A stretch of DNA of 64,000 nt from a virus, in the IMG/VR virus record IMGVR_UViG_3300029319_007985, positions 32,001-96,000 of that record. One strand, given 5' to 3'. A program made the position numbers and the translations under genes. Positions 3,232-63,547 of the stretch are shown here, one piece after another (position 1 is the first letter of the stretch; each line of letters begins with the position of its first letter). Below the pieces are notes generated by a model. The model was not told the DNA's origin and did no database searches. It saw only the letters and a program-made list of their open reading frames with translations.

Positions 3232-4665
3232 ATGCAGGACGTACTTCAAAAAACACTAGATAAAAAATACCAAGCAGGGTTTACCACCAATGTGGAGTCG
3301 GAAACTTTACCACCAGGTCTAGATGAAAATACAGTAAGAAAGATTAGCAAGATCAAAAATGAACCGGAGTGGTTGCTAAAGTTTAGATTGAAAGCATTTG
3401 ACAGGTGGAAAATTTTAAAAAAGCCTGATTGGGCAAATTTAGAAATAGAACCAATAGACTATCAAGCAATTAGTTACTATTCAGCACCAAAAAAAGGACC
3501 AGCATCATACGATGAAGTTGATCCAGAGATCAAAAAGGACTTTGAAAAATTAGGAATACCTCTCCATGAAAGAGAAAAACTAGCAGGGGTGGCGGTAGAT
3601 GCAGTTTTTGATTCTGTGTCTGTGGCTACAACGTTTTCAGAAGAATTGAAAAAATTAGGTATAATCTTCTGCAGTTTTAGTGAAGCGGTACAGAACCATC
3701 CTGAACTTGTGAAAAAGTATTTGGGTTCGGTTATTCCAATCAGTGACCATAGTTTTGCGGCCTTGAACAGTGCAGTATTTACAGATGGATCATTTGTGTA
3801 TATTCCACCAGGTGTGAGATGTCCTATGGAACTGTCAACGTATTTTAGAATAAATGCGGCCAACACTGGACAATTTGAACGAACACTTATAATAGCAGAT
3901 CGAGACAGTTATGTAAGTTATCTAGAAGGATGTACAGCACCTATGAGAGATGAGAACCAATTACATGCGGCCAATGTGGAACTGGTTGCTTTGGACAACG
4001 CAGAAATAAAGTATTCAACCATACAGAATTGGTATCCAGGAGATCCTGAAACAGGCAAGGGTGGTATCTATAACTTTGTTACAAAAAGGGGAAAATGTAT
4101 TGGAAAGCATTCAAAGATTACATGGACCCAATTTGAAACAGGTTCGAGATTAACTTGGAAATATCCAAGTTGTATTTTGATGGGTGACAACAGCATTGGT
4201 GAATTTTACAGTGTGGCTCTTACTAATGGCCGACAACAGGCCGACACAGGAACCAAAATGATACACATAGGTAAAAACACTAAAAGCACAATCATATCAA
4301 AAGGCATTAGTGCAGGTAAAAGTTCCAACACATATCGAGGACAGGTCAGCATAATGAAGAGGGCAATTAACAGTAGAAACTTCACTCAGTGTGATAGTTT
4401 GATGATGGGATCCGGATGTAGTGCTTCAACTGTGCCTGTGATACAAAATAGGAATAGCAGTTCAACCTGCGAACACGAAGCCACCACTAGCAAATTAAGT
4501 GATGAACAGATGTTTTACTGTATGCAGAGAGGCATACCAACCGAAGACACAATCAATATGTTGGTCAGTGGATTTTGTAAAGAAGTTTTCCAGAAACTAC
4601 CAATGGAGTTTGCCGCGGAGGCAAATAAACTACTAGAAATTAGTATGGAAGGTTCCGTAGGCTAA
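3232..4665 (+). CDS. sufB: Fe-S cluster assembly scaffold SufB
   Basis: [52 protein letters not shown] motifs; full length 477 aa. Confidence 0.97.
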
Positions 4666-5738: not shown

Positions 5739-6290
5739 ATGAGTATGAAAAAACTAGCATTGGTTTTATTTGCAGGTTTGTTGTTGGCGCAATGTTCAAC
5801 CTACAAAATTAAGCCGGACATGACAAAGGATGGAGTTGTTAACAAGACTCCTAAATGGTATGTCAAATACGATCACGAAACAATGTTTAAGTATCAAGAG
5901 GCGGCAACTGCTGTATCTCCTGACTTAGAACTTGCTGTGAAGAAAAGTATTTTATTAGCAAAGGCTAAACTTGTTGATAGAATAAATGGTCTAATGAACA
6001 ATCAGACTACTATCAAGAAGGATGAAGTTGGTACTAATGAAACACTTACGGTACAGTCAGGTTCGCAGGACATTATCGTAAACGTGATTGAAGATACTTT
6101 AGCCAGAGGATATGAGGTAACAAAACAGGTTGTTTTTATGACAAACAACAAATCTTATAGATCTTATGTGATGGTTGAACTTTCTAAGAAAGAAGTAAAA
6201 GCCATTATCGAAGAAGTTAATAAGAAAAAAGTTGCATTCATTGATACTAGCAAACTTGAAAAAAGTGCTAAAAGCATCTTAAACAAGTAG
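5739..6290 (+). CDS. lipoprotein, LPP20-like
   Basis: Lipobox LLAQ-C; PKWY...A.SPDLELA.KK..L.AK pattern. Confidence 0.65.
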   Translation: MSMKKLALVLFAGLLLAQCSTYKIKPDMTKDGVVNKTPKWYVKYDHETMFKYQEAATAVSPDLELAVKKSILLAKAKLVDRINGLMNNQTTIKKDEVGTNETLTVQSGSQDIIVNVIEDTLARGYEVTKQVVFMTNNKSYRSYVMVELSKKEVKAIIEEVNKKKVAFIDTSKLEKSAKSILNK

Positions 6291-6296
6291 GGCAAT

Positions 6297-6647
6297 ATGA
6301 ACTACATTTACAAACTTATTGCCCTAGTTGTAGCACTTCTAATCTTTGGATTAGTTGGTGTGGCAAAGGCCGGAGGTCCATGGTCGGATCAATACTGTGA
6401 CATTAGCCATGAGACTGTGATCACAAAAAATGAAAAGGGAGAGATCATCGATAAAGTAACCAAAGAAAAAGTCAAGTGCGAAGACGGTGTAATGGACTTC
6501 CTACACGGAATGAAAATTGCGGAAAGTTGTAAGTTCTTTACTTGGCAGATGCCGATGGGAGAAAAGTTAGTAGAGCAGAGAGGTATTGCTTGTAAGAGAT
6601 TGGATGGAGGATATGAAATTGTTCAAGGTTATCACAGTATTAATTAG
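6297..6647 (+). CDS. secreted Cys-containing hypothetical protein
   Basis: Signal peptide ending AKA; four Cys. Confidence 0.65.
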   Translation: MNYIYKLIALVVALLIFGLVGVAKAGGPWSDQYCDISHETVITKNEKGEIIDKVTKEKVKCEDGVMDFLHGMKIAESCKFFTWQMPMGEKLVEQRGIACKRLDGGYEIVQGYHSIN

Positions 6648-7074
6648 TCTGGTGCTTCTAACTAATTGCACGTCATCCAATGTGCAGAAAGTATCAGTTG
6701 TGCCTAAAGAAACCGATGGCGCATTGGCACAGATGCCATATCCGGTTATGCTTGGAGAAGGTGAGATATGGAGTGCGCCAGGAATGTTATGGAACGGTGC
6801 ACAATACATTAGATTTAATCTTAACAAGGCAGAGAAGCAACAACATCAACAAGCGGTATATCATAGTTTAAACAACGCACAAATTGGTGAAATAACTGCT
6901 TGGTATAGTAAAAAACGTCTAGCAAATGGCAAGATCAGGGTTATAAGTCACTTTCCTACGTCAGATGGCTACTGCCGTGTTTATCAGAGTTATATACAGT
7001 TAAATGGTGCACAAAGGCACATGACGAACAAGGCGTGTAAAAGATTAACACTACCTTGGGTATTCCTAAAATAA
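6613..7074 (+). CDS. lipoprotein with 17-kDa surface-antigen-like C-terminal domain
   Basis: Start MKLFKVITVLISLVLLTNC (lipobox) after GGAGG; W...G...YCRVYQ...ACKR motif. Confidence 0.65.
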   Translation: MKLFKVITVLISLVLLTNCTSSNVQKVSVVPKETDGALAQMPYPVMLGEGEIWSAPGMLWNGAQYIRFNLNKAEKQQHQQAVYHSLNNAQIGEITAWYSKKRLANGKIRVISHFPTSDGYCRVYQSYIQLNGAQRHMTNKACKRLTLPWVFLK

Positions 7075-7084
7075 ATAGTTCTAG

Positions 7085-7092
7085 TATAAATA
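7085..7092 (+). promoter_or_regulatory. T4-type late promoter TATAAATA
   Basis: Exact T4 late consensus upstream of 7111; core TAAATA recurs before structural genes. Confidence 0.6.
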
Positions 7093-7110
7093 ATAGCAAG
7101 GAATTTACAA

Positions 7111-7758
7111 ATGGCAACAGTCGAACCAAAATCTTTATATAACGTTAATATTAACGAACCACAAATAACGTATTTCACAGTGGCAATAAACACTTCAGGC
7201 TTTTTAGACACTGAGACAGTAAATGGTGGAAGAGTGTCTCCGTGCATAGCGAATGACTTTGCAACTAAGCCTACAACACTAGCACAATCATTATTGGTAT
7301 CAAGAGGGAACTTAAGATGGAAAATGATGATGGAGGCTCTAGCAGTAAGATCCAATTTTAGAGTGTGCAATATTGTTACAACTTATGCCGCTGACGAAGG
7401 TGACTCACCGATTACTAACTTGGCATTTGGACTTGTTTTTGATACGCCAAACTTTGTTCCAACAACAGGTACAACAATCGACGGATCAACAACTACTACA
7501 ACAAGAGCATTATATCTTCAAGACAAAATTGCTGAAGCATTGAACACTACAAGAACTGAGAACATGAGTATTTTTGATCCAACTGGTACTGGCAATCCAC
7601 AGCAATTAAGAACAATTGAAGTAACAGCCGGTCCGGTGTTGACAGCATCAATTGGTGAAATAGTAGAAGCAATCACAGTTACAGAAGTTACTGGTTTTGC
7701 ACCAAACACTAGCAACCAATTGCCAACTGACAACTCATTGACATACTCAGCAGAGTAA
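7111..7758 (+). CDS. hypothetical protein, probable virion component
   Basis: Thr-rich beta-type composition, late-type promoter. Confidence 0.6.
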   Translation: MATVEPKSLYNVNINEPQITYFTVAINTSGFLDTETVNGGRVSPCIANDFATKPTTLAQSLLVSRGNLRWKMMMEALAVRSNFRVCNIVTTYAADEGDSPITNLAFGLVFDTPNFVPTTGTTIDGSTTTTTRALYLQDKIAEALNTTRTENMSIFDPTGTGNPQQLRTIEVTAGPVLTASIGEIVEAITVTEVTGFAPNTSNQLPTDNSLTYSAE

Positions 7759-11443: not shown

Positions 11444-11508
11444 TACGATGCTAATAGATAGGTCGTACAAAAACTTAACTCGCTTAACAATAGGAGGCAA
11501 AGCACATG
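11444..11508 (+). ncRNA. ROSE-like RNA thermometer in hsp20 leader
   Basis: Hairpin TACGA(11444-48)/TCGTA(11463-67); CTCGCT(11479-84) pairs with SD AGGAG(11492-96) with a bulged G, i.e. the ROSE U(U/C)GCU signature. Confidence 0.6.
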
Positions 11509-11961
11509 ACAAACAATAAAGCACTATCTATCTTTAATCAATTAAGACCCGTAACTGTTGGGTTTGATAACGTATTCGATCATTTCGAAAGAATGTTTGA
11601 AGACGATTTTTTCAGATTGCCAACAACTTCAAACTTCCCACCTTACAACATTGTAAAGACTGGGACAAACACTTATGACGTTGAACTTGCAGTAGCAGGT
11701 TTCGGTAAAGACGACATAGAAGTGCAGTATGAAGACAACATGTTGACTGTGAAGTCCAAAAAGTCTGATAAGTCAGAAGAAAAGGACGAGGACGGAAACG
11801 TTATCCACAGAGGAATTTCCAAAAGATTTTTCTCAAAATCATTCACGATAGCGGATGATGTGGAGATCAAGGGCGCCGAATTGAAAGATGGTTTATTGAA
11901 GGTTTCTATGGAAAGAATTGTTCCAGAAGCCAAAAAAGCAAGAACTATCGACATCAAATAA
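11506..11961 (+). CDS. hsp20: small heat shock protein Hsp20 (IbpA-like)
   Basis: NFPPYNIVK, ELAVAGF, HRGISKRFF, AELKDGLLKV, IDIK tail. Confidence 0.95.
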   Translation: MTNNKALSIFNQLRPVTVGFDNVFDHFERMFEDDFFRLPTTSNFPPYNIVKTGTNTYDVELAVAGFGKDDIEVQYEDNMLTVKSKKSDKSEEKDEDGNVIHRGISKRFFSKSFTIADDVEIKGAELKDGLLKVSMERIVPEAKKARTIDIK

Positions 11962-15287: not shown

Positions 15288-15316
15288 TTGACACTATCCA
15301 ACTTATGTCATATAAT
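15288..15316 (+). promoter_or_regulatory. sigma70-type promoter of the B12 operon
   Basis: TTGACA-17 bp-TATAAT immediately before the riboswitch. Confidence 0.8.
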
Positions 15317-35586: not shown

Positions 35587-35614
35587 TTGACAATTCTTTA
35601 AGATCTGTTATAAT
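35587..35614 (+). promoter_or_regulatory. sigma70-type promoter
   Basis: TTGACA-16 bp (ending TGT)-TATAAT, 6 nt before ATG 35621. Confidence 0.75.
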
Positions 35615-35620
35615 TTAAGC

Positions 35621-35932
35621 ATGTCTTCAAAGCGTTCTAGAACTGCGGTTAAAACACTCACTTGGCGTGTATTAGCAACAACTGACACGTTTCTTATCAG
35701 TTATTTTATTACTGGTAGATTCGATTTTGCCGGAGCCATTGCTGGTATTGAGGTGGCAACAAAAATGATTTTGTACTACCTGCATGAAAGAGCATGGAGC
35801 AGAATTAAATGGGGCAAACTAATAATAGATTTGCCTACTTCACCGTATCCTTTCGAAGACTGGAAAATAAAAAGGTTACGTAATTTTTTAGATAAAAAAG
35901 GAAACAAAAGATTGGCAAGGTTATTACAATGA
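35621..35932 (+). CDS. DUF2061-like membrane protein
   Basis: KTLTWRVLAT..T...YYLHERAW..I.WG. Confidence 0.8.
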   Translation: MSSKRSRTAVKTLTWRVLATTDTFLISYFITGRFDFAGAIAGIEVATKMILYYLHERAWSRIKWGKLIIDLPTSPYPFEDWKIKRLRNFLDKKGNKRLARLLQ

Positions 35933-58697: not shown

Positions 58698-59345
58698 GTG
58701 TCAAAAAAATATTTCAGTTGGAGCACAGGATTTAAAAGTATAATCATCGTAGATGGTGAACTTTTCAATAACGATTATACAATTAAGTTACACATAACTC
58801 CAATAACCACAAACCTACAGGAGCAAGGAGATTATTTTGAAAGATTGAAAATGCTTTTTGAAAATGTTTTAAACAACACTGTAGTCGCTTCAAAAGATGA
58901 AAAACTTTATCAACTCTTAGAAAAAGAAAGCAATAATAGATTTATACAATTACCAAAGCAACCTTATGATCAGTTGATGGCGGCAGTATGCTTTACCAAA
59001 TCAAATGCGGTCATGCAAGGAAAAATCCTTATAAATGAATTAGAACTTAGCAGTTACCAAGGTGATGGTATCACCTACAGAATAGTCAAAGAAGGACCCG
59101 AGATCGAATTGCTAGACGTTGACAATTGGTTTCCAACCAAGTATAATAAATTTGATCCATGGTGGTTAAGATCAGATACAGCAACATATGATAAAATTTT
59201 GGACAAAGGTATCTATACAGGACACTATCGTTGGCACAATCAAGAGACAATTATTGATACGGTTGACAAAGATAGTGCCAATCATGCTAAAATATTTGAG
59301 TTCAATCCAAAGGTTTTAGATGGCGACAAAGGTAAAGATAAATGA
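58698..59345 (+). CDS. hypothetical phage protein
   Basis: GTG start; PYDQ and WW.R.D motifs. Confidence 0.65.
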   Translation: MSKKYFSWSTGFKSIIIVDGELFNNDYTIKLHITPITTNLQEQGDYFERLKMLFENVLNNTVVASKDEKLYQLLEKESNNRFIQLPKQPYDQLMAAVCFTKSNAVMQGKILINELELSSYQGDGITYRIVKEGPEIELLDVDNWFPTKYNKFDPWWLRSDTATYDKILDKGIYTGHYRWHNQETIIDTVDKDSANHAKIFEFNPKVLDGDKGKDK

Positions 59346-60256: not shown

Positions 60257-61024
60257 ATGAAATTATTAAATTGTGGATGTAGTTTTGCACATGGCTACAA
60301 TTCAATTCCACTTGATAATTATAACATTTTAAATCAACCTGGACTAATGAGTCCAGGCACCAAAAGAACTACCGCCACCGCTTACAAAAGTGCTGGTTGG
60401 CATCTAGCACAATCAAAAGATATGGAGTATATTGACATTGCACGTAATGGCAACAGCAATGAAGGGATATTAAGAACATTAAGAACTTACATCCATCTTA
60501 ATGACACAAAAGACTTATTCGTTTTGATCGGTTGGACACATGCATTTAGGAGAGAATACATGAGTGTGGTGACAGATAAAAACAAAAATGAATTTACTCA
60601 GTACAGAGAAATTCCAAGTTCTGGATCATTTTTAAATTCATTTGCCCAGGGAAAATCACCAATGATGGTTGAATTTAATGAAAGGAACTTCCGCCCTTTG
60701 GCATATGATGACCATATAGAATATAGACAATACAACATTATGTTGCAGGCACAACAGTTGTTACAACTAAAAAACATACCTTACCTCATGTACAATGCCT
60801 GTGGTAACGAGCATCAAAGCAATGACAGAGAAGTATTACAACTAAAAGATCAAATCGATAAGAAAAATTTTTTTAGATTTACAGGGCCAAGTTTTGATGA
60901 ATATGTTTTAGCCAACAGAATGTATCTTTCCAAAGATGGAGGACATCCTGGTCCAAAAGGACATCAACATCTTGCTGATTTATTAAGACCTAAGTTTGAT
61001 ACAATATTGACAAAAACCAACTAA
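60257..61024 (+). CDS. SGNH/GDSL-like hydrolase, paralog of 43678..44517
   Basis: CGCSFAHG, GNSNEGILR, GGHPGPKGH. Confidence 0.65.
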   Translation: MKLLNCGCSFAHGYNSIPLDNYNILNQPGLMSPGTKRTTATAYKSAGWHLAQSKDMEYIDIARNGNSNEGILRTLRTYIHLNDTKDLFVLIGWTHAFRREYMSVVTDKNKNEFTQYREIPSSGSFLNSFAQGKSPMMVEFNERNFRPLAYDDHIEYRQYNIMLQAQQLLQLKNIPYLMYNACGNEHQSNDREVLQLKDQIDKKNFFRFTGPSFDEYVLANRMYLSKDGGHPGPKGHQHLADLLRPKFDTILTKTN

Positions 61025-61035
61025 AATACTATAAT
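61007..61035 (+). promoter_or_regulatory. sigma70-type promoter
   Basis: TTGACA-17 bp-TATAAT, 7 nt before groES ATG. Confidence 0.75.
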
Positions 61036-61042
61036 TATAGAC

Positions 61043-61489
61043 ATGGGACAAATAGAAGATTTACAAAATAAAGGTTTTGGCAGTCACGGTGGAAGACAGT
61101 ACACCGTTGAATATGATATTACTCCATTAAAGAAACGTGTTTTGGTAACAAACATGAAATTTGGAGAGATCAAAACTGCCGGGGGAATAATTATACCTGA
61201 CGATGACGGTACCGAATCTGGCATACACCCGCGTTGGGCAGAAGTGTACGCAGTAGGTAGCAAACAGGAAGACGTCAAAGTAGGGCAATGGATATTGGTG
61301 GCTCACGGCAGATGGAGTAGATCTTTCAAAGTTAAAAAGAATGGAAAAGAATTTGAAGTGAGAATGATTGATGAAAATGACATTTTATTAGTTTCTGACG
61401 AAAGACCCGCTGACGAAACATCTAAAAAAGCAGGTTACGTAAACACTGGCGGTATGCAACAAATGACAAGTTTACCGGGAAATGATTAA
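61043..61489 (+). CDS. groES: GroES-like co-chaperonin
   Basis: [10 protein letters not shown]...[10 protein letters not shown]...VYAVG...VKVGQ.IL...IDENDIL. Confidence 0.85.
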
Positions 61490-62748
61490 TGGAAGAAGAA
61501 AAAAAATATAAACCAGTAAACACAAACAAAGTGGCGGAGAACACTTCGCCGTTCAAAGGTGTGTTAGGTTGGCTAGATAACAGACTGCCAGTATTCAGGA
61601 TGTTCAAGCACGAATACTTGGACTTCCAAGTACCAAAAACTTTGACATACTTTTGGAGTTTTGGAGCAATATTGACATTTTGTTTATTAGGTCTAATTAT
61701 AACAGGCCTAATATTAGGAATGCATTATAAACCATCTACGGCAGAAGCATTTGACAGTGTTGAAAAAATTATGCGTGATGTCAACTACGGTTGGCTGATA
61801 AGGTACATGCATATGAACCTGGCGTCCTTTTTCTTTATTGCAGTCTATATACACATGTTCCGCGGATTATATTTTGGTTCTTACAAATCACCTCGAGAAC
61901 TTATGTGGATCTTAGGATTAATAATTTATTTCTTAATGGTGGCAACTGCATTTTTAGGATACACTTTGCCATGGGGGCAAATGAGTTTTTGGGGAGCAAC
62001 TGTTATAACAAGTTTATTTGGAGCAATACCTTATATTGGTGAAACTATAACACATTGGTTATGGGGCGCCTACGCAGTTGACGATCCAACATTAAACAGG
62101 TTTTATGTATTGCACTGGCTTATAGCATTTCTAATTGTGGGTGTTGTGTTGTTTCATGTTATTGCACTACACATGACCGGATCAAACAATCCAACAGGAG
62201 TTGAACCAAAAGACACTAGAGATACTGTAAGTTTTCATCCTTATGTCACAACAAAGGATTTATTTGCATTTTTAGTTTTTATTGTAATATTCGCGGCATT
62301 TTTATTTTTCATGCCTAACTATCTTGGACACCCTGACAACTATATAAAAGCCAATCCGTTAGTGACACCTGCACATATTGTACCTGAGTGGTATTTTTTA
62401 CCTTGGTACGCAGTGCTAAGAGCGATACCTGACAAACTAGGCGGAGTAATTGCAATGGTGTCAGCGATCGGCGTAATAGGTTTACTGCCATGGCTAGACA
62501 CTAGTAAGATAAGAAGTTCTATATATAGACCAGTCTGGAAACAGTTTGTTTGGATTTTGGTTGCGGACTTCTTCCTTCTAATGTACTGCGGTGCTATGCC
62601 GGCGGAACAACCATTTGTTCTTTTGAGTCAAATAGGTACAGCATATTGGTTCTTATTTTTCTTAGTAATTGCACCGGTTGTGGGTTGGACCGAGAAACCT
62701 ACACCTCCCCCTGCGGCTATTCACTTATACAAAAAATCTAAAAAATGA
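61489..62748 (+). CDS. petB: cytochrome b of the bc1 complex
   Basis: Four heme His (RYMH, YIHMFRG, VLHW, LFHV), [34 protein letters not shown]; alphaproteobacterial-length 419 aa. Confidence 0.96.
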
Positions 62749-62984
62749 CCGAATTTACTTGTGGTAAATGTGGAACCAATTTTAAGGATTGCGTTTATTG
62801 GTTTGATAGTTTATACTATGCTAAATTCGACCATAGAAAAATTATTCCTTTCTGTGGTCCTAAATGCGTAGACGAATGGCACAAAGAAAACAACGTAAAA
62901 GAATGGGAACTAAGAAAAGCACCTTATCCAAAAGGTCCAGAATGGCAAATGATTACAAACCTATACCCTGCCATGTTCCAATAG
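62745..62984 (+). CDS. small zinc-binding protein
   Basis: CGKC...FCGPKC. Confidence 0.6.
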
Positions 62985-63334
62985 AAAAACTAGTCACTCT
63001 GGCAGAACTAGGACTTGGAGTAGAAAGGCCACTTAATTCAGAAAAAAGAAAGTGGATAGCCAAACTAGCAAAGGAAGGCAGTGACCAACCTATTCTTGTC
63101 ACTCCAATAAAAGACTCCGGATACTTTGTGTTGGCAGATGGTTGGCATAGGGTACAAGCCGCAAAAAAGAAAAACAAGAAAAAAATCTACGCACTACAAG
63201 TTCCTGTGAGGGTAGGACTTACAATGGCAAAAGTAAACAAAATATTACGGGACATCGATAAAGAATTTGATTACAAACTTGACACTAGTGGTGTTGTGGC
63301 TCACTGGGCAGTTATGCAATCAATGTTATACTAA
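62942..63334 (+). CDS. ParB/Srx-like N-terminal domain protein
   Basis: QPILV...LADGWHRVQAA; start set to ATG 62942. Confidence 0.7.
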   Translation: MANDYKPIPCHVPIEKLVTLAELGLGVERPLNSEKRKWIAKLAKEGSDQPILVTPIKDSGYFVLADGWHRVQAAKKKNKKKIYALQVPVRVGLTMAKVNKILRDIDKEFDYKLDTSGVVAHWAVMQSMLY

Positions 63335-63463: not shown

Positions 63464-63547
63464 ATGAATCAAATATTACCTTTTGCATTAGCAGTGATAA
63501 TCACGGTGGCTGTTATTTTGGCCATTGTGTATTATGTGCCAATGTAG
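63464..63547 (+). CDS. small single-TM protein (27 aa)
   Basis: MNQILPFALAVIITVAVILAIVYYVPM*; fills the gap exactly. Confidence 0.4.
   Translation: MNQILPFALAVIITVAVILAIVYYVPM

Follow-up and report, generated by a model that had tools for sequence, protein, structure and literature searches.

A solo bc1-type cytochrome b gene in a T4-like phage genome and its relatives in viral metagenomes

The petB gene and its phage setting

The window analysed here is a 64,000-nucleotide stretch of viral DNA corresponding to bases 32001-96000 of the IMG/VR record IMGVR_UViG_3300029319_007985. This record is 172,389 bp long and, according to CheckV, about 47% complete, which limits every record-wide absence reported below. 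The subject of this study is one gene of the window, petB, which encodes a bc1-type cytochrome b, a core subunit of respiratory complex III. The gene is located some 61 kb from the first base of the window; phage genes flank it, and it lies neither at a contig edge nor at a prophage border. Upstream of it are genes for gp9-like baseplate and tail-fibre proteins, a DNA polymerase fragment and a co-chaperonin resembling GroES and T4 gp31, and downstream is the gene of a clamp-loader ATPase; all of these are on the + strand, which holds nearly all the long open reading frames (ORFs) of the window. Given these neighbours, petB sits within a T4-like phage genome. Solo petB genes, which we find on about 80 viral contigs, are probably the respiratory equivalent of cyanophage photosynthesis genes.

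The protein has the features of a complete cytochrome b. Both cytochrome b domains of Pfam, Cytochrome_B (PF00033; 3e-69, 233 bits for a cut-off of 27.2) and Cytochrom_B_C (PF00032; 3e-40, 137 bits for a cut-off of 20.7), are found in one ORF of 419 amino acids with about eight hydrophobic segments, which corresponds to the long bc1 form and not to the split b6/subunit IV form. The phage PetB aligns over its full length (E about 1e-139) with the cytochromes b of Paracoccus denitrificans (2yiu/9fks) and Rhodobacter (1zrt/2qjp), and the heme ligands, the Qo and Qi sites and the eight-helix layout of these solved alphaproteobacterial bc1 complexes are common to it. The heme ligands H108, H122, H209 and H223, accompanied by R125, are all present; these four histidines align with the ligands of Paracoccus 2yiu and are invariant in the alignment. 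Likewise, the elements of the Qo site (the cd1-helix motif in the WGATVIT region, residues 160-174, and the PEWY motif, residues 299-302) and those of the Qi site (H228 and K256/D257) are kept. A set of 70 cellular alphaproteobacterial PetB sequences has 174 columns with a conservation of 93% or more, and the phage protein retains 157 of them.

Some differences from the solved proteins were also found. Paracoccus cytochrome b has a long insertion after the PEWY helix that is missing from the phage PetB, and the solved bc1 cytochromes b have a Gly in the HANGAS motif where the phage protein, whose partner subunits are not encoded nearby, has a Leu (HMNLAS, residues 108-113). The sequence also matches mitochondrial cytochrome b (1e-119 to 1e-130), although the genetic setting is unrelated and the likeness is an analogy only; of the mitochondrial complex III subunits, cytochrome b alone is encoded apart, the genes of its partners being nuclear. 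PHROGs contains no family for the phage PetB protein. Among the INPHARED phage genomes, the only match (39% identity) is at the extreme end of the record of Helicobacter phage Pt11470_1 (PQ159902.1, 35708-36736) and is probably host DNA, and a cytochrome b fragment with 55% identity, placed on a very long branch, was found on a contig of a giant-virus metagenome-assembled genome (GVMAG, L252).

In the phage genome, petB is the second gene of a four-gene unit that starts with the gp31-like gene, continues with zn79 and ends with orf156 (Table 1). The stop codon of the gp31-like gene overlaps the start of petB (TAATG), whose own stop codon overlaps the start of zn79 (ATGA). The original prediction had read from the letters an intact petB with four heme ligands, Qo motifs and Qi residues, coupled in this way to both neighbours, and each of these elements was found again in our analysis.

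Table 1. Positions of the petB unit and of other features in the window
Feature	Position	Strand	Evidence or remark
Perfect sigma-70 consensus promoter (TTGACA-17-TATAAT) of the unit	61007-61035	+	Consensus motif match; ends 7 nt 5' of the gp31-like ATG
GroES/T4 gp31-like co-chaperonin, gene 1 of the unit	61043-61489	+	Pfam Cpn10 3.8e-10; PHROG 931 'head morphogenesis' 2.5e-15; PHROG 3188 GroES
petB, bc1-type cytochrome b, 419 aa	61489-62748	+	Pfam, PDB alignment, dN/dS
HMNLAS motif of petB	61810-61827	+	
PEWY motif of petB	62383-62394	+	
zn79, 79-aa Cys4 zinc-ribbon-like protein without known family	62745-62984	+	89-90% identity, in contigs L014 and L044 only
orf156, 156 aa, weak ParB-N-like similarity, last gene of the unit	62864-63334	+	PHROG 1033 1.4e-6; Pfam ParB_N only 0.093; 88-89% identity to the L014/L044 counterparts
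Terminator-like hairpin, 11 pairs	63502-63529	+	Pattern match only; follows the unit and precedes the clamp-loader gene (63559)
Other perfect sigma-70 promoters	2124-2151, 15288-15316, 35587-35614, 59119-59147	+	Consensus match
SufB Fe-S cluster assembly protein	3232-4665	+	65% identical to sufB of Microcystis phage MaAM05
HSP20 small heat-shock protein	11506-11961	+	

The promoter preceding the unit is one of five perfect TTGACA-N16-18-TATAAT sites of the window, where chance would give 0.11, and all five are + strand sites. It is conserved as a perfect promoter in contig L044 and as a near-perfect one in L014, two relatives that share the unit (see below). Relatives from other clades have a perfect promoter directly in front of petB itself, with a gap of 15 nt in L010-L013 and of 6 nt in L029. 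By analogy with the early promoters of T4, this suggests early transcription by the unmodified host RNA polymerase. For two of the five promoters of the window, an ATG (at 35621 and 61043) comes only 6-7 nt after the promoter end, a hint that the early transcripts may be leaderless.

As for other phage hallmarks, Pfam searches for the head protein gp23 and for terminase gave no match in the record, and the gp23 control also matched nowhere; as the record is incomplete, these negatives carry no weight. No tRNA genes were found in the 64-kb window.

Solo petB genes in other viral contigs

The genes for the Rieske protein (petA) and cytochrome c1 (petC) were searched for in the whole 172,389-bp record. 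Neither Pfam (PF00355 and PF02167, respectively) nor tblastn with ten diverse PetA/PetC queries gave a match, and COX1, cytochrome c and uroporphyrinogen decarboxylase (URO-D) were not found in the record either. Rieske and c1 genes are also missing from five further large viral records with petB, which span 67-156 kb and are 19-44% complete, so that in the six large records taken together (67-172 kb), which amount to about 675 kb of related viral sequence, the genes of the partner subunits were not found.

The solo state is recurrent. In IMG/VR, a pattern scan retrieved 59 loci and a profile-based scan extended the search to 81 relatives; their roughly 80 contigs belong to some 50 metagenome ids, and a further 13 metagenome contigs carrying petB came from exact look-ups. 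The flanks of petB contain petA or petC in 0 of 71 viral or metagenome loci and in 0 of another 63 loci from IMG/VR. Altogether 135 loci were fetched, with some contigs present twice, and in 94 of them petB has 1 kb or more of sequence on either side. On the other hand, in the control made with the same query on bacterial loci of GTDB, petA is directly upstream and petC directly downstream in 79 of 80 cases, the exception being a locus that ends at a contig edge. The original prediction had pointed to the lack of a Rieske or c1 gene beside petB as a departure from the usual bacterial linkage, and both the lack and the linkage hold. Literature searches returned no report of a bc1-type cytochrome b in a phage; a preprint describes a temperate Nitrosospira phage genome with a complete bc1 gene set, a situation that differs from that of solo petB.

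The neighbourhood of the gene varies among these contigs. In L010-L013 (petB at 8001-9269 in L010), the gene is about 1 kb downstream of an OEP/CHASE2-cyclase module that matches a module found at 25-35 kb of the window, and therefore related phages differ in the genomic position of petB; in the same contigs, a gene for uroporphyrinogen decarboxylase, an enzyme of heme synthesis, is located 2 kb beyond petB. About 40 viral contigs (L033-L072; e.g., L033:6046-7257 and L071:6019-7272) carry a solo petB that is sister to the PetB of SAR116, with radical-SAM and class II ribonucleotide reductase genes nearby. Finally, contigs of about 172 kb (L153-L155, petB at 6001-7290) carry a petB of the A2 type. 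HhH-GPD, NifU and ClpS genes flank it on one side, and on the other side there are FeS_assembly_P and ClpP genes along with several of the radical-SAM family.

Origin of the phage gene and possible exchange with SAR11

The phylogeny against alphaproteobacterial PetB points to a SAR11-type alphaproteobacterial origin of the phage gene. In the maximum-likelihood tree, the query falls in clade A1 (support 100/99), which forms, together with the solo phage clades A2 and A3 and a single cellular clade, SAR11 subclade III, a larger group that we call clade X (100/100). Clade X has a very long stem, estimated at 0.55 substitutions per site and, with a site-heterogeneous model, at 0.75. The cellular form of clade X is carried by 9 of 301 Pelagibacterales species genomes and is 70-73% identical to the query, and the remaining genomes with a match are at 60-65%; one unpublished genome among the 301 (G111) adds only to the latter tally. 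By exact look-up, the nine-genome form was named as that of Pelagibacter sp. IMCC9063 (WP_013695355.1, subclade IIIa) and Candidatus Fonsibacter/LD12 (IIIb), which are the nearest cellular relatives of the phage protein. The N-terminus and the hallmarks P47Q, G111L/F, N199D, P213A and Y387W are common to the PetB of subclade III and to the phage protein. However, the cellular genes are part of petA-petB-petC operons and encode proteins of 432-433 amino acids, whereas the phage copy is solo and its product, of 419 amino acids, has a shorter N-terminus.

A separate clade of solo phage genes is sister to the operonic PetB of SAR116 (support 100/99). Since clade X, with SAR11 subclade III, and this second clade stand apart in the tree, there were at least two captures of petB by phages, each from another host group.

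The HMNLAS motif of the query follows this history. The Gly of the canonical HANGAS, three residues after the bL heme ligand, is found in 67 of the 70 cellular sequences. In the phages, the same position is occupied by L in all A1 and A2 sequences, by M or L in A3 and by G in most of the SAR116-type clade, and in cells of subclade III it is L in the IIIa genomes and F (HMNFAS) in most LD12-type IIIb genomes. An identical HMNLAS is found in the PetB of IMCC9063, whose gene belongs to a normal petABC operon. The original prediction had listed the G-to-L change as an oddity of the gene; because an operonic IIIa PetB carries it, because LD12 has HMNFAS and because the second phage clade keeps G, we reject the idea of a phage innovation or of a retuning specific to the phage. 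The change is thus a trait of the clade X lineage, one that functions in living cells.

The position of subclade III raises the question of the direction of transfer. Compared with Pelagibacter Ia, the PetA and PetC proteins of subclade III are 66-71% and 60-71% identical, respectively, as in other deep SAR11 lineages, whereas its PetB is only 58-61% identical and other SAR11 PetB proteins reach 74-94% (the petABC loci of subclade III are L162-L170 and L156-L159). In a tree of PetA plus PetC, subclade III is nested in SAR11 (100/100) on a stem of 0.10. Thus, PetB alone is anomalous in this subclade, since its two partners are placed normally, on a short stem. Either PetB underwent a burst of evolution in the ancestor of subclade III before it was captured by phages, or a copy evolved in phages replaced the native gene. 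We regard it as a tentative possibility, with the odds against it, that petB moves both ways between phages and SAR11, as psbA does in cyanobacteria, and that the chromosomal petB of subclade III may be a phage-evolved replacement inside petABC. Approximately unbiased (AU) tests, framed after the tree had already been seen, do not reject SAR11 plus clade X as one clade (p 0.20). LG+G4 rejects monophyly of the phage genes (p 0.008), and with LG+C20 and posterior mean site frequencies (PMSF) the result is only borderline (p 0.067). Concerning the evolution of SAR11, the point of interest is that a whole subclade has a phage-like PetB alongside ordinary PetA and PetC.

Selection on phage petB and its possible role in infection

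The gene order of the unit (gp31-like gene, petB, zn79, orf156) is repeated on L014 and L044, which come from two other metagenomes. The PetB proteins of these contigs are 96-97% identical to that of the query, and the neighbouring genes 62-90%. Within this subclade, the ratios of nonsynonymous to synonymous substitution rates (dN/dS, Nei-Gojobori) are 0.016, 0.025 and 0.042, calculated over 46 to 138 synonymous differences per pair; the pair at 0.016, for instance, has 13.5 nonsynonymous and 138.5 synonymous differences. Comparable values are found in the second, SAR116-type phage clade (0.024-0.074) and in the cellular petB of Pelagibacter Ia (0.014-0.032). These ratios indicate that purifying selection on phage petB is strong and cell-like. 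In addition, the GC content at third codon positions (GC3) of petB is 33.9%, compared with 28.6-33.6% in the surrounding phage genes and 20-26% in most SAR11 petB genes.

These data bear on whether petB could be an artefact or a passenger, that is the product of a chimeric assembly, a cellular contamination of the viral bin or a recent acquisition without function. The record is indeed metagenome-assembled and incomplete, and joins of this kind can arise: L255, a 2-kb contig of low coverage, combines phage and Pelagibacter Ia petB sequences. In the case of the query, however, the gene order recurs in independent metagenomes, the start and stop codons of petB overlap those of its phage neighbours, no cellular copy is more than 73% identical, and the composition of the gene has drifted to that of the phage. 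Moreover, the dN/dS values of about 0.02-0.04 are those of a gene under constraint, and solo petB occurs on the numerous contigs and metagenomes described above. Misassembly, contamination and a pseudogene are therefore very unlikely, given the repeated gene order, the low dN/dS, the phage-like GC3 and the conserved columns retained. The contig L255 (positions 1-1985, ENA ERZ1742203 NODE_9952, 2.3x coverage) deserves a separate mention: from nucleotide 1 to about 575 it consists of the 3' end of the gp31-like gene and the 5' half of petB, with 99-100% nucleotide identity to the phage, and the remainder is the 3' half of a Pelagibacter Ia petB followed by petC (89-96% identity). The two parts meet in the conserved WGATVIT codons, as the result of either a chimeric assembly or a genuine recombination between phage and host.

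We favour the view, to which we assign a probability of roughly 0.6, that petB is a functional auxiliary metabolic gene (AMG) of the phage, whose product joins the Rieske protein and cytochrome c1 of the host and keeps complex III working during infection. The phage would be a marine T4-like virus, probably of about 350 kb, with a SAR11-type alphaproteobacterium as its likely host. Its four-gene unit would be read early by the unmodified RNA polymerase of the host; PetB would enter the inner membrane of the host, bind two b hemes there and combine with the host Rieske protein and cytochrome c1. The resulting hybrid complex would keep or raise the quinol:cytochrome c reductase capacity, and thereby the proton-motive force and the ATP supply, throughout a long infection with the genes of the host silenced. 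Assembly with the host subunits is suggested because catalysis at the Qo site needs the Rieske cluster and yet the Qo elements of the phage protein are under cell-like constraint. The compatibility of such a divergent PetB with host partners is plausible, because the operons of IMCC9063 and LD12 pair a PetB of this type with ordinary SAR11-type PetA and PetC, with which it presumably works.

Two other roles in the infected cell were weighed against this one. Rather unlikely, in our estimation, is a retuned variant, which would assemble into the host bc1 complex and might bring altered Qo chemistry, a lower superoxide leak, another quinol affinity or insensitivity to natural Qo or Qi inhibitors. 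Residues found on the phage side are in line with it: F306W and N175S, changes of the Qo pocket, are present in all 23 clade A1 sequences and set these apart from subclade III, and at position 306 cellular proteins have F in 69 of 70 cases. N175S lies in the WGATVIT helix and is specific to A1. Position 306, which immediately precedes the conserved Tyr in the PEWY helix, is the equivalent of yeast F278, an inhibitor-resistance (atovaquone) site of the Qo pocket, and is mentioned here as a lead only. Furthermore, all 70 cellular sequences have T at position 201 (DPTLNRF motif, in the alignment of P0001), where most A1 sequences (A1b) and all A3 have F and the SAR116-type clade has L, often together with P200A. 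The replacement of T201 by a bulky residue is a convergent change of two unrelated phage clades, seen in phages only. The very long stem of clade X also fits a change in function. Nevertheless, the subclade of the query retains T201, P200 and F205, and G111L, P47Q, N199D, P213A and Y387W are common to the operonic PetB of subclade III and hence not specific to phages.

Improbable, and more so than retuning, is a role outside complex III, either as a stand-alone di-heme quinol-binding cytochrome or as a dominant-negative subunit, which would shunt electrons or collapse host respiration and might serve, for example, in lysis timing, in the exclusion of other phages or in feeding a redox partner of the phage. 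Such a role would be in keeping with the absence of the partner genes from the related viral sequence searched, with the many radical-SAM and Fe-S assembly genes of these phages (SufB in the window, NifU and FeS_assembly_P beside petB in L153) and with the presence, in two clades, of small zinc-finger genes overlapping petB at its 3' end. However, the PEWY motif, the cd1 helix and nearly all the invariant positions are constrained as they are in cells, which is hard to explain for a protein without a Rieske/c1 partner, and a poison subunit would be expected to shed its catalytic residues.

A number of points weigh against our preferred reading of petB as a subunit that sustains the host complex. 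The petA and petC genes could lie in the missing half of the record, and the available half, which has no URO-D, cytochrome c or oxidase genes, carries no wider respiratory module. Cytochrome b is not known to be a fast-turnover subunit like D1, and the gain from a "replacement part" is less obvious than for psbA. The closest cellular relative is just 70-73% identical, so that a fit with the Rieske protein and c1 of the actual host is assumed. Finally, as regards the host assignment, the GC content of the phage (37%) is higher than that of SAR11 (30-34%), and a window free of tRNA genes gives no clue to the host.

The energy-conversion AMGs of phages are best known from photosynthesis. Cyanophage psbA, in particular, is under purifying selection, common in ocean phages and repeatedly acquired, and its product is presumed to work with host partners and so to sustain the energy supply of the infected cell. 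Like the cyanophage genes psbA and psbD (D1 and D2 of photosystem II), petE, petF and PTOX, phage petB is a host-derived gene for a core membrane redox subunit that travels without the rest of the complex, and the parallels with psbA extend to purifying selection, recurrence, at least two acquisitions and the absence of partner genes. The two differ in that one belongs to a photosystem and the other to respiratory complex III, the petB hosts being heterotrophs (SAR11-type and SAR116-type). The initial proposal of a psbA-like respiratory AMG stands, in that petB is genuine, selected, solo, recurrent and captured at least twice; a reading of the G-to-L change as a phage-specific retuning does not. 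A complex III core subunit that is widespread, selected and repeatedly captured in SAR11- and SAR116-type phages would extend the AMG idea to respiration. If this is true, part of the respiratory electron flow in infected cells of dominant ocean heterotrophs passes through a virus-encoded protein. It also raises the question of why cytochrome b, the subunit that mitochondria retain in their own genome as well, is the one that phages carry.

Concerning the gene that follows petB, zn79 was considered as a conserved partner of petB and rejected, as it occurs only in the two closest relatives and the downstream genes of the other clades, with the exception of the A2-type gene described below, are unrelated. 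A complex prediction for PetB and zn79 gave a score of 0.00, which makes binding neither more nor less likely. The 3' end of petB is overlapped in A2-type phages by a zf-CHCC gene (NDUFS6-like, PF10276, 2.9e-11; L204:6269-6451, + strand). Two unrelated small zinc proteins are thus found coupled to solo petB, zf-CHCC in the A2-type phages and the Cys4 zinc-ribbon protein zn79 in the phage of the window.

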